Origin: an uncultured bacterium
GTDB taxonomy: Bacteria; Babelota; Babeliae; Babelales; Babelaceae
Assembly: GCA_963722385.1 (NCBI GenBank)
Contig: CAVRKK010000002.1
Location: 800,001-864,000 of the forward strand
Direction of reading: 5' to 3'
DNA length: 64,000 nt
A model generated the notes under the pieces. The model ran no database searches. It was not told the origin of the DNA and was given only the letters and a program-made list of their open reading frames with translations. Below are positions 7,238 through 62,517 of the stretch, piece by piece. How positions within the stretch are numbered: position 1 is the first letter of the stretch; each line of letters opens with the position of its first letter. The position numbers and the translations under genes were made by a program.

Positions 7238-9544
7238 ATGATTAAAAAGTGGTTGAATTTAGTCAGTTGTATTGTTGCTATGACGGTGTGCTTTTCTAGT
7301 AAAGCTATGGAGCACCCCGAAGAAAATAGTGTTACGAGCGATATAACAGGAATGTTGGAGATGGTAAGCGGCCAGCTTAGGAGCAGCTCTTTAGGTACAA
7401 CCGTAAATAATACGGTACCAGGCCAAACAATTAACGTGCATAGAAGTGATCAGCTAGATTTAAGCGATGATTTGTTAAAGGCGGTGCAGGCAAGAGAAAA
7501 CAGCTTAATTATGTATATAATTTTTAAAGTTTTAAGGTTTGATATTTATACGCTTAATACGTTACCTGCAAGGGAGTGGATTTTACAAAAACTATCTGAT
7601 CTGAGAACTCAGCCGCAAAACACAAGCAGCATCTCTGAAACTAAAGACTATAGGCAGTTATTAGCTCTTGTTCTATGGGCAGAAGAGAGGCTTAGAACAA
7701 TGAGAACGATGACTGCAACCTTAAAATTGCCCGACGCATTGGTGTTTTCTATTTTAAGTGAAGCAAAAGCTGTTATTTCCTTGTCTTCAGCTCAAATTTT
7801 AGGTCAAATTTTACATCATGCTGTCAAGGAACAAAATGAGGTGATAACTAAGGAGTTATTAAATCAAGGAGCTGACGTTTCTATCTGTGACTCTGCAGGT
7901 AAGCGACCGATAGACCATGCAGCACAAGTTGGCAATATTAAGCTTGTAAGATTGCTTATTGAGCATGGAGCTAAGGTTGATTTAGGAGAGGAAAAGCATA
8001 ACCAGCCTTTACATTATGCAGCAGCTCTCGGACGTGAAGATATAGTAGAATTGCTTGTAAATAATGGAGCTCGCATTGATGCGATTGACAAAGAAGGCTA
8101 TCAGGCAATCCATAGAGCAGCTGCTGGTGGGCATAAAGATGTAGTTGAGCTATTGCTTAAAAAAGGTGTACGTATTGATGCACTGACTGAAGGAGTTGGT
8201 TGGCAGCCTCTCCATGTTGCTGCAAGAAAAGGTCAGCTTGAGATGGTGAAGTGGTTGCTTGATCAGAAAGCTGATGTTAATGCCGAGGATACGAATAAAA
8301 ACCAACCTCTTCATCTAGCGTTAGATGCTAATCGGCTGAAAATAGCAAGGCTGCTTATTCAGCGTGGAGCTGATGTTAAGGCACGCAACAGCTGGACTAA
8401 GCAACCAATACATATTGCAACATCACGTGGTTTTAATGAAATACTTAAGCTTCTTTTAGAAAAAGGGGCTGATGTTGAAGCTCTAGCTCAGTGTAACCTG
8501 CGTCGTCAGGTCGGCCAAAATGCAATAGCTTATTTTCTACGCCCCATCCACATGGCAGTTCTTTTTGGAGATATAACAACAGCAGAGATATTAGCTGATG
8601 GAGGCGCTGACCTTACTGCCCTTGATGGAGGCGAAAGGGGTTTTCAGCCAATACATTATGCAACAAAACGTGGCGATGTAAAGTTAGTAGAGTGGCTTGT
8701 AAAAAAGGGTGTTCCAGTGGATAGTCTAAGCAGCCAATCCTGCTTTTGGGAGTTTAGTTGGGATACTGGGTGGACAATAGATTTAATAGATTGGTCGGCA
8801 AAAAGGTGTACCTCAATAGGTAGTATGAGCAGTCAGGCCTGCCTTCGGCCGATTACTATTGCAGTTATTAAGAGAAATTATGAATTAGCAAGCTGGCTTT
8901 TGAGTCATGGTGCTTGTGTAAACAAGATAGAAAATAACGGTGTAAATGATATAGCTCCTTTAATAGCTGCGATAGTAGCGGGATACCTTGCAGGTAATTT
9001 AGACAGCTACGCTTACATTAATATTGTTAGACTCCTTGTCAAACATGGTGCTAATATTTATGGACAGGAAATAGGAGGTTGGCAAGCAATACATTTTGCT
9101 GCCTCTGCGGGAAATGAAGCATTGGTAAGGTGCCTAATTACACTAGGTGCTAATCCTGCTGCCAAAATGGACAATGGCAATCAGCCAATACATCTTGCTA
9201 TCCGGGAAGGAGATGAAACAGTAGTAAAATGCTTAATTGAGCTAGGTGCTAATCCTACTGCTTGGGATGTCGATGGTAATCAACCGATACATTTGGCGGC
9301 GAAAAAAAGACAGCTAAAAGTGGTTCGATCTCTTTTGAATTACGGAGTTTCTAAAAATATAGTAAATAAGGCTGGTAAAAGTCCCATTGAGTGTGCACTA
9401 GAAGGTAAATCTGAGCTTAAATCTTACATGGTTAAGAAGCTTAATAAATATGATCGCATTTTAGAACTTTTGAGCTCGAAGACTGACTTTCTTGATAGAG
9501 AAGATGCTGCATTTCCTACAAATTGCTGCTTGTATAGCGGATAG
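7238..9544 (+). CDS. Exported ankyrin-repeat protein
   Basis: Signal peptide then MEHPE; many QPLH/QAIH..AA..G ankyrin repeats; GGAGG RBS. Confidence 0.92.
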   Translation: MIKKWLNLVSCIVAMTVCFSSKAMEHPEENSVTSDITGMLEMVSGQLRSSSLGTTVNNTVPGQTINVHRSDQLDLSDDLLKAVQARENSLIMYIIFKVLRFDIYTLNTLPAREWILQKLSDLRTQPQNTSSISETKDYRQLLALVLWAEERLRTMRTMTATLKLPDALVFSILSEAKAVISLSSAQILGQILHHAVKEQNEVITKELLNQGADVSICDSAGKRPIDHAAQVGNIKLVRLLIEHGAKVDLGEEKHNQPLHYAAALGREDIVELLVNNGARIDAIDKEGYQAIHRAAAGGHKDVVELLLKKGVRIDALTEGVGWQPLHVAARKGQLEMVKWLLDQKADVNAEDTNKNQPLHLALDANRLKIARLLIQRGADVKARNSWTKQPIHIATSRGFNEILKLLLEKGADVEALAQCNLRRQVGQNAIAYFLRPIHMAVLFGDITTAEILADGGADLTALDGGERGFQPIHYATKRGDVKLVEWLVKKGVPVDSLSSQSCFWEFSWDTGWTIDLIDWSAKRCTSIGSMSSQACLRPITIAVIKRNYELASWLLSHGACVNKIENNGVNDIAPLIAAIVAGYLAGNLDSYAYINIVRLLVKHGANIYGQEIGGWQAIHFAASAGNEALVRCLITLGANPAAKMDNGNQPIHLAIREGDETVVKCLIELGANPTAWDVDGNQPIHLAAKKRQLKVVRSLLNYGVSKNIVNKAGKSPIECALEGKSELKSYMVKKLNKYDRILELLSSKTDFLDREDAAFPTNCCLYSG

Positions 9545-61044: not shown

Positions 61045-62517
61045 ATGGTGCGAAACAAAAGCACATTGCTTGCAATCCTATTGAGCTTTTTTACGCTTTC
61101 TGGAATGGAAGCGCCTAAAAAAAAGAATAAATCTCGTATAGGTACGGTGGTGCGTTATGCACGCAAGCACAAGATGCGTGAGATTGCCCAGAAACTAGAA
61201 CAAGCAATGAGCAACGACAATCAAAAAATGATTCGCCAGCTATTTGGATTGCTTGAGATACTTAAAGAAAAGCCATCAGAACACATAGCAGAAGAATTCT
61301 CCCAAGTGCCAGCAAGAATATTGGTGAATATGCTGTTTGCTCAGGGCCACAGGGAACTTGGTCACGACCTTATTAACGCTTATGCTACCAATGATGAAAA
61401 AAGAATTAAGGAAATCACTGATGGTATTGTTATTGTTGAACATGAAGGCGGTCTACGGTCATTATTAAGCGCCCTTGAGTCTCAGAATATCAGCATTCTT
61501 CAAGGTCTGTTGTTTGATGGTGTGGTTTCTGATGCGGTGATGACAGCAATCGCGAGCGAAGCCGTTTATCAAGAAAAGCTCACGGTTGCCGAGTGGCTTT
61601 TTGAGCACGGTGTACGTTTTCTATCTATTAGATCAGAAAAGTTGAGCACGGCGAGCCTGCTATGGTTATATCAACATGGTAACGTTGTGTCAGTTAATTC
61701 TCAGGAATCAATAAGCTTGCCATGTCTTTGCTATGCAATAATGAGGAATAACGAAGATTTTGTACGTATGGGCATCCAGTATATGCGCCAATATAGACGT
61801 CTCAGAAATAAAAATCAAGTAGACGATGCATTAGTAACGGCCGTTGGTCTGGGAAAGCTAGCATATGTCAAAATGATCTTGAGTGAGTTTGGCAGCGACT
61901 TTAGGCCCTCGGTACAAGCCTTATGTGTAACCAGAGCAGCTGCTCTTGGCTATAGCGATGTTTTAGCATTTCTTCTTAAGAGCTTTGAGGTACCCGATAA
62001 CATTCTTGGTGATGCTCTCACGATAGCCGCATCGCGAAAGCACGATGAGACCGTAAAATTTATTCTAAAAAATTACCGAGATCGGGTTATTCGTTTTTTA
62101 AGTAGCGCTTTTGCAAAAGCGGTGATGAGAGGAAATAAAAATATCGCAGCTGCTATCCTTGACCAAGCACGGCTTCATGAAAATAACGAGCTTTTATCGA
62201 CCTGGGAAGAGCCTTTTCAACTTGCTTTATATACCGCTGGCACCCATGAAAGCTGGGGCCTCTTTTTTTGGGTTCTTGATCAAGCACTTTCCCATGGGTT
62301 CACGATAGAATGCTTGCGGGATTATTTTACTGAAATTTTACAAGATACCTCGCTTACGCCAGCCCTCAAAAGCAAAATCCATACAATGCAAAGGTTTCTC
62401 GAGCAAACTCAGCTCGATCAATCGATGCTGTATGGCCACCTCGCCGCATGTCCTCAACCCGTTGTGCGGAAAGTATTACGTAATTATCTGCTCAATAATA
62501 TTGATATCATCTCTTAG
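61045..62517 (+). CDS. Exported degenerate ankyrin-repeat protein
   Basis: Signal peptide then GMEAP; AL..A...G....V..IL repeats. Confidence 0.75.
   Translation: MVRNKSTLLAILLSFFTLSGMEAPKKKNKSRIGTVVRYARKHKMREIAQKLEQAMSNDNQKMIRQLFGLLEILKEKPSEHIAEEFSQVPARILVNMLFAQGHRELGHDLINAYATNDEKRIKEITDGIVIVEHEGGLRSLLSALESQNISILQGLLFDGVVSDAVMTAIASEAVYQEKLTVAEWLFEHGVRFLSIRSEKLSTASLLWLYQHGNVVSVNSQESISLPCLCYAIMRNNEDFVRMGIQYMRQYRRLRNKNQVDDALVTAVGLGKLAYVKMILSEFGSDFRPSVQALCVTRAAALGYSDVLAFLLKSFEVPDNILGDALTIAASRKHDETVKFILKNYRDRVIRFLSSAFAKAVMRGNKNIAAAILDQARLHENNELLSTWEEPFQLALYTAGTHESWGLFFWVLDQALSHGFTIECLRDYFTEILQDTSLTPALKSKIHTMQRFLEQTQLDQSMLYGHLAACPQPVVRKVLRNYLLNNIDIIS

Follow-up and report, generated by a model that had tools for sequence, protein, structure and literature searches.

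In Bacteroidetes a Q-rule has been described, in which a phylum-linked residue follows the signal peptidase I (SPase I) site and apparently serves the stability of exported proteins (PMC5837995). In the vacuolar parasite Plasmodium, host-destined proteins processed at the Plasmodium export element (PEXEL) begin, unlike resident ones, with x-E/Q/D behind their leader (PMC10653839). N-termini of the NatB class, Met-Asp/Glu/Asn/Gln, are as a rule left untrimmed by methionine aminopeptidase (PMC11735805, PMC8037982). Here we explore a comparable pattern in a 64,000-nucleotide stretch of a Babelota genome (hereafter the window; contig CAVRKK010000002.1, positions 800,001 to 864,000), where six genes encode a hydrophobic leader directly followed by Met-Glu, in order to identify how far the pattern extends and what it could serve.

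Cultured Babelota are intracellular parasites of protists. Signal peptides were reported on 79 of 126 ankyrin proteins in Babela massiliensis (PMC4378268) and on 78% of those in Chromulinavorax destructans (PMC6561590), with a type II secretion system (T2SS) or vesicles proposed for release; the share of Sec-exported proteins reaches up to ~40% in Babelota, and 44% in PMC6561590. The words 'methionine' and 'cleavage' are absent from the main texts of these two papers and, supplements aside, the residue following the leader is not discussed there. No description of Met-[EQDN] effector starts was found in the literature, with supplements and most subscription journals outside the scope of that search. 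The source organism is a member of the Babelota (Dependentiae/TM6), as judged from its marker genes, its small ankyrin-rich genome and its two secretins (cf. PMC4776705). The nearest relatives of its tyrosyl-tRNA synthetase come from Babeliaceae, Dependentiae and Babeliales genomes at 56-63% identity, and in the phylum sample, one order with genomes of 0.8-1.8 Mb, 39 of 41 had ankyrin matches.

All six hydrophobic leaders proposed by the first-pass annotation to end at Met-Glu were found at the starts it gave:
7238..9544, + strand: ankyrin-repeat protein of 768 aa, 23-residue leader ending in SKA, then MEHP (ME codons 7307-7312)
11044..12879, + strand: ankyrin-repeat protein of 611 aa, leader ending in SWT, then MEHP (ME codons 11113-11118)
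40657..41460, + strand: ankyrin-repeat protein of 267 aa, leader ending in ATG, then MEAP (ME codons 40732-40737)
54290..55162, - strand: GNAT-like protein of 290 aa, leader ending in VNG, then MESP (ME codons 55100-55105)
55223..56143, - strand: degenerate ankyrin-like protein of 306 aa with a C-terminal F-box-like LPxE motif, leader ending in LKS, then MEF (ME codons 56084-56089)
61045..62517, + strand: ankyrin-like protein of 490 aa, leader ending in LSG, then MEAP and next a basic run resembling a nuclear localization signal (NLS), with a C-terminal F-box-like motif (ME codons 61105-61110)

A cleavage-site scorer blind to residues +1 and +2, its inputs being only -1, -3 and the upstream hydrophobic run, ranked the Met site first in five of the six and second in the sixth. 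Of the cargo labels given earlier, ankyrin stands; the GNAT assignment of 54290-55162 is weak (Pfam E 4e-4, one of two homologues named GNAT), and the cargoes called F-box-like turn out to be ankyrin-like (61045 with E 3e-9, 56143 weakly with E 0.003; Pfam), their LPxE motif having no significant Pfam F-box match. The gene at 7238-9544 and a leaderless ankyrin frame at 9836-11044 may be one split gene, and a related ankyrin block lies on the opposite strand at C2:410956-416433.

Gene calls, leaders and cleavage sites were predicted with our own heuristic scripts, not SignalP, on a genome of 93% completeness. A strict rule yielded 1206 genes and 392 leader-like proteins, a relaxed rule 1217 genes and 601 leader-like proteins; the relaxed set includes false leaders, so that fractions are diluted. 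A rule site is a position satisfying the signal peptidase -3/-1 rule, and Met-[EQDN] means Met at +1 followed by Glu, Gln, Asp or Asn at +2. At the level of these predictions the observation is confirmed and extends beyond the window to the genome. An ME start at residues 14-33 occurs in 69 of the 392 leader-bearing genes; the remaining genes have it in 26 of 814 cases and internal windows in 4 of 372. Met-[EQDN] stands at the rule site in 89 of 591 de-duplicated leader-bearing proteins, where 8.2 were expected and 100 shuffles reached at most 15.

When 54 leaders were aligned on ME without use of the rule, -1 was A, G, S, T, C or P in 52 (19, 15, 8, 5, 3 and 2, respectively) and -3 was L, A, V, S, T or I in 51 (16, 13, 8, 6, 4 and 4, the remaining three being N), a composition which, in these alignments, is the SPase I pattern. 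The Met-blind scorer placed the ME site first in 29 of the 54, among ~13 candidate sites each. Leaders of the Met class have a median length of 22 (range 16-33) and a mean hydropathy of 1.9-3.1 from -14 to -7, which falls to -3.5 at +2 and stays negative beyond, so that no later h-region follows. By prediction they resemble Sec/SPase I substrates, with a basic n-region, a hydrophobic h-region, a length of ~16-33, a small -1 and a small or aliphatic -3.

The +2 residue was examined at Met sites ranked in the top three, with no other filter, and again with a symmetric filter. D, E, N or Q stood there at 110 of 188 sites (background 26%) and a small residue at 32 (background 38%); with this genome left out, the counts were 50 and 23 of 109. 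Non-Met sites of the AxA type gave D/E/N/Q in 31 of 107, near background. Ankyrin cargo picked on Met alone, with family f6 left out, had D/E/N/Q in 48 of 56 (E 36, Q 5, D 3) and a small residue in three. In this genome, as in family f2, Glu prevails; families f3 and f10 also have Asp, Asn and Gln, and f6 has Ser or Ala in place of Met. The proposed 'ME' tag thus stands as to Met and fails as to Glu alone, the common element being Met plus an acidic or amide residue. Pro is found at +4 in 46 of 90 Met-class proteins, often as M-E-x-P, and the early mature tail is polar and rich in E, K, S and P. A second exported class starts with Gln-[EQDN] (41 of 591 against 12.8 expected in this genome). 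A search of the 93% complete genome for glutaminyl cyclase (QC) returned no plant-type QC and one weak M28 match on the window's peptidase gene; any pyroglutamate would therefore be spontaneous or come from an unrecognised enzyme.

The bias follows cargo. Among 75 leader-bearing ankyrin proteins, 57 carry Met at a rule site, against a mean of 10.8 and a maximum of 21 in 500 shuffles, and 55 carry Met-[EQDN]. An envelope-type set of 27 hand-picked proteins (BamA, BamD, OmpH, PBPs, binding proteins, secretins and others) has three rule-site Met and one Met-[EQDN], the latter probably with Met at -3; Met-[EQDN] occurs in 3 of 32 propellers, where paralogues point to leader residues in at least two, and in none of three barrels, seven delta-60 proteins and three collagens. 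The suggested partition into effector-like and envelope proteins is therefore supported (ankyrin 55/75, envelope-type 1/27), and the enrichment test by cargo class that had been proposed for +1 Met and +2 E/D, run here with our own predictor, showed the tag concentrated on ankyrin and other effector-like cargo. Pfam searches covered 219 of the 336 leader-bearing proteins that are not ankyrins, namely 51 with a Met site plus 168 further ones, taking a single member per cluster and the first 330 residues. Matches in the Met class included a Ulp1/C48 protease, an LHH nuclease, a NUDIX enzyme, an alpha/beta hydrolase, a nucleotidyl transferase and more weak ankyrins, most non-ankyrin members having no Pfam family. 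An exported ubiquitin-like protein (L157:19653-19964, -) starts Met-Pro and an exported DnaJ-domain protein (L153:1-990, -) Met-Thr, with the +1 Met falling close to where the domain naturally begins in both.

With patterns picked after the sequences had been viewed, the Met class had a C-terminal F-box-like LPxE motif in 17 of its 90 proteins (3 of 481 elsewhere) and an NLS-like run in 9 of 87 (10 of 481 elsewhere). Of 11 C-termini searched against Pfam, one matched F-box-like (E 1.3), and a profile of the motif matched in the PDB only three sequences of the F-box protein MAX2 (E 1.5), with no genome match above the cut-off; F-box identity is thus suggestive only. In genome G002 (L109), the leader and Met-Glu of tandem ankyrin genes are followed by an F-box-like LxxLP motif at the N-terminus, whereas the source genome has the motif C-terminally. 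The 87 Met-class leaders fall into 71 families, with a median pair score equal to that between Met and non-Met leaders; a single shared leader cassette is ruled out by this diversity and lack of excess likeness. The 90 cargoes form 20 clusters, one of which, mostly ankyrin, holds 66.

Contrasting exported proteins of the window are:
13122..14414, + strand: exported protein, a barrel according to the earlier note, with no Pfam match and no Met at the rule site
33520..36023, + strand: two exported repeat proteins, the first without Met, the second a Pfam beta-propeller
41585..45643, + strand: exported protein of 1352 aa, leader followed by Gln-Glu, of the second class
46910..48262, - strand: exported collagen-repeat protein without Met at +1
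62714..63274, + strand: exported DUF5122 (delta-60) propeller without Met at +1

The earlier remark that surface-type proteins of the window lack the tag holds for the barrel, the FG-GAP-like propeller, the collagen and the delta-60 protein; the exception is the propeller at 34764, which has only a low-ranked (sixth) Met-Asn site. The small ankyrin gene at 40657-41460 is one of six near-identical copies in the genome (the others at C2:320057, 343371, 347955, 365817 and 868459), its 1352-aa neighbour exists in at least four copies, one pair being inverted just past the window end, and the window copy (40657-45643) lies near IS-like genes. At 5246-6151 (-) a kinase-like gene (weak HipA_2/OspG kinase match) has at least three exported paralogues, one of which starts Met-Asp. 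The multi-membrane protein with C-terminal TPR repeats at 2958-5249 (+) is reminiscent of TMTC-type O-mannosyltransferases, and a frame with an arginine-rich RRxRR-like stretch at C1:291690-292889 (-) of IscB.

Thirteen relatives were sampled at ~50-200 kb each, often in ankyrin-rich regions, so that the sample is not even. Met-[EQDN] is enriched in relatives of four Babelota families: other genomes of f1 (5/84, 1.1 expected), f2 (21/107, 2.6 expected), f3 (14/99, 1.5 expected) and f10 (8/48, 1.2 expected). Families f4, f5, f7, f8 and f9 pooled gave 7/176 (1.4 expected) and f6 4/131 (2.8 expected). Family f6 uses Ser-[EQDN] (20 of 131 against 7.1 expected) and Ala-[EQDN] (20 against 4.9), partly in paralogues; these too are typical starts of eukaryotic proteins. 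'Met-Tyr' sites in ankyrin proteins of genome G040 were set aside, the Met being judged to be at -3. Eight named Babelota loci around tyrS had 3/63 (0.7 expected), inside the shuffle range. The outgroup sample consisted of three genomes and 25 short ankyrin loci, with Chlamydiota and Amoebophilus/Cardinium left out. Loci of other, mostly free-living phyla gave 2/175 (1.6 expected), and three Pseudomonadota genomes of 1.0-1.1 Mb with ATP/ADP translocases 2/83 (0.4 expected, shuffle maximum 2); in leader-bearing ankyrin proteins from the order of one of these no Met site was found. Cross-genome orthologues of Met-class cargo were too few to gauge conservation, an Atlas search with the first 40 residues returned no matches and a plasmid search no useful relatives.

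Searches of the genome identified one full lepB, two secretin genes, two GspF/PilC-family genes and three pseudopilin-like genes. Two genes downstream of lepB lies what we take, by sequence motif, to be a GspE-like gene. The two secretin genes, of ~1000 aa, are in one run (C2:774048-783335) with two genes between them, presumably PilM/PilO-like. A dedicated second signal peptidase lacks support, the second S26 match being a 112-aa frame without a membrane anchor, as does a Sec-TolC route, a TolC/OEP search of the 93% complete genome having given no match. The gene set agrees with PMC4378268, where T2SS is the sole secretion system of Babela and the bacteria live in a vacuole, and with PMC4776705.

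We place about even confidence in the reading that in host-acting proteins of Babelota the predicted cut before Met-Glu (or Met-Asp/Gln/Asn) shields the protein from host N-degron pathways. What can be read from the sequence as predicted is the leader with its -3/-1 pattern, the Met and +2 bias, the concentration on ankyrin and effector-like cargo, the one full lepB and the type II gene set. LepB would cut right before the Met, and the mature protein would exit via T2SS or vesicles, reach the host cytosol and, arriving after translation, miss the ribosome-bound acetylases. [quoted passage not shown] Met plus an acidic residue would remain untrimmed by the host methionine aminopeptidase and, the acetylase of its class not being a main stability factor, would be the safest unmodified start. 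The site of action is likely the cytosol or nucleus of the protist host, and the F-box-like motif, the NLS-like run, the Ulp1/C48 protease and the LHH nuclease were counted in favour as cytosolic or nuclear marks. NatB is described as ribosome-bound, acting co-translationally on Met-Asp/Asn/Glu/Gln, and as not being a main proteostasis factor; unacetylated Gly/Ala/Ser/Thr/Cys, Met-hydrophobic and Met-basic starts are described as degrons and Asp/Glu/Asn/Gln as entering the Arg/N-degron route (PMC11735805). [quoted passage not shown] Under these rules, Met-Glu and Met-Asp are the safest starts for a protein that reaches the host post-translationally, in line with the starts observed. The idea that cleavage exposes a eukaryote-like N-terminus gains support from the +2 residues at predicted sites; of the NatB proposal, the match to the Met-Asp/Glu/Asn/Gln class stands (48 of 56 ankyrin +2 residues), while actual acetylation is doubtful, as NatB works on the ribosome during translation (PMC11735805).

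Several observations weigh against the shielding reading. A Met site is missing from 18 of the 75 ankyrin entries with a leader. Some of these are mis-called starts or fragments, but ~13 are genuine exceptions, and several of them begin with Gln, Asn, Asp or Arg, which would destabilise. Sampled ankyrin proteins lack the tag in f7 (0/2) and f8 (0/6), and those of f6 make no use of Met; the free Ser or Ala starts that f6 would have act as degrons in animals and plants (PMC11735805). Outside this genome Met-hydrophobic starts show no depletion (22/109, background 20%), and the two database homologues of the window GNAT have a lipobox-like Cys in place of Met. The three translocase-bearing genomes show no bias (Met at the rule site in 3/85), so host pressure has not yielded it everywhere. 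The degron rules were worked out in yeast, plants and animals and may differ in a protist host, and the counts are not independent, one cluster holding 66 of the 90 cargoes. Cleavage, delivery and function of the tagged proteins are predicted only, by a heuristic predictor.

In the main rival reading, by analogy with PEXEL, the tag may instead serve sorting: a second export step, at one of the two secretin channels or in crossing the vacuole, would read Met-[EQDN] at the mature N-terminus, often within M-E-x-P and with a polar tail behind it. We regard this as possible but on the whole doubtful. It would fit the secretins, GspF/PilC-family genes, pseudopilins and GspE-like gene near lepB together with the missing TolC match, T2SS as the sole system of vacuolar Babela (PMC4378268), the +2 E/Q/D common to Met and Ser/Ala versions and to PEXEL products (PMC10653839), and a Pro at +4 and polar tail that exceed what degron avoidance needs. 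The residues at +1 and +2 vary between families, however, exported enzymes and propellers go without the tag, and no receptor candidate was found. T2SS substrates are, moreover, generally regarded as being recognised via folded features and not by a linear N-terminal tag. Sorting and degron avoidance are compatible, and sequence alone cannot choose between them. Both would be joined in a PEXEL counterpart, in which a Met-acidic N-terminus exposed by SPase licenses a secretin or vacuole-crossing route and also hides the effector from host N-degron control; this we think rather unlikely. If true, Sec substrates would bear a short linear N-terminal code that sets effectors apart from envelope proteins and has been rewritten by family (Met-Glu against Ser/Ala-Glu).

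The Met could also be a relic, the old start codon of acquired genes which were given a leader and spread by ankyrin gene duplication, with no present function. The ubiquitin-like and DnaJ proteins suit this, their Pfam matches starting from residues 25 and 21, as do the one dominant cargo cluster and the GNAT homologues with Cys. Leaders split into 71 families have nonetheless kept the Met, a small +2 would be expected in ~54% of relic eukaryotic starts (Arabidopsis nuclear/cytoplasmic table, PMC8037982) where ankyrin cargo has it in 3/56, and Glu stands at +2 in ~5% of the genome's own non-exported proteins (rough start calls); we hold a relic to be improbable. Still less probable is an origin in processing free of host biology, through a Sec/LepB preference or a true cut elsewhere that leaves the Met in the leader c-region. 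Acidic early-mature residues help Sec export generally, and in f6 ankyrins and some propellers a better site exists that has the Met as its residue -3 or -4. One full lepB nevertheless serves both classes while the bias tracks cargo type, and the hydropathy drop at +2 and the first rank of most ME sites in the Met-blind scoring argue for a cut before the Met. The first-pass suggestion of an internal start, taken here as giving a leaderless isoform in the bacterium or, from a Kozak-like context, on host ribosomes, finds little room and seems to us very improbable. The Met codon is ATG, with a purine at nucleotide -3 in 76 of 90 and G at +4 in 78 of 87, but purine -3 and C -1 (29) are as codon usage predicts (72.3 and 24.9), and other families use Asn, Gln or Lys codons, without G at +4. 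A Shine-Dalgarno-like duplex below -5 kcal/mol precedes 2.3% of +1 ATGs (n=87), fewer than the 12% of ordinary internal ATGs (n=2874), against 61% of leader starts (n=87).

Most Sec-exported proteins of Babelota belong to no known family, and no type III or IV system marks effectors. A two-residue mark behind the leader would offer a sequence-only way to pick likely host-acting proteins, ~90 in this genome, and makes two questions testable. One is how Sec-exported bacterial proteins evade the N-degron pathways of the host; the other is whether type II secretion can read a linear N-terminal tag. The closest precedents are the Bacteroidetes Q-rule and the mature termini of PEXEL proteins. The Q-rule applies to most substrates in all compartments, their Gln being cyclised by glutaminyl cyclase (PMC5837995), while here the residue is Met, the cargo is effector-like only and a modifying enzyme was not found; Gln at +1 is far from general among the SPase I substrates of this genome, Gln-[EQDN] accounting for 41/591 and Met-[EQDN] for 89/591. 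NatB-class termini carry the initiator Met of host ribosomes, whereas the Met here would be exposed by a bacterial peptidase and is probably unacetylated. PEXEL belongs to a eukaryote, in which plasmepsin V cuts behind RxL, acetylation takes place in the endoplasmic reticulum and PTEX transports the product (PMC10653839); the Babelota leaders have no RxL, with G/A/S/T/P/C at -1 and mostly L/A/V/I/T/S at -3, a predicted cut by bacterial SPase I and a +1 residue fixed as Met.

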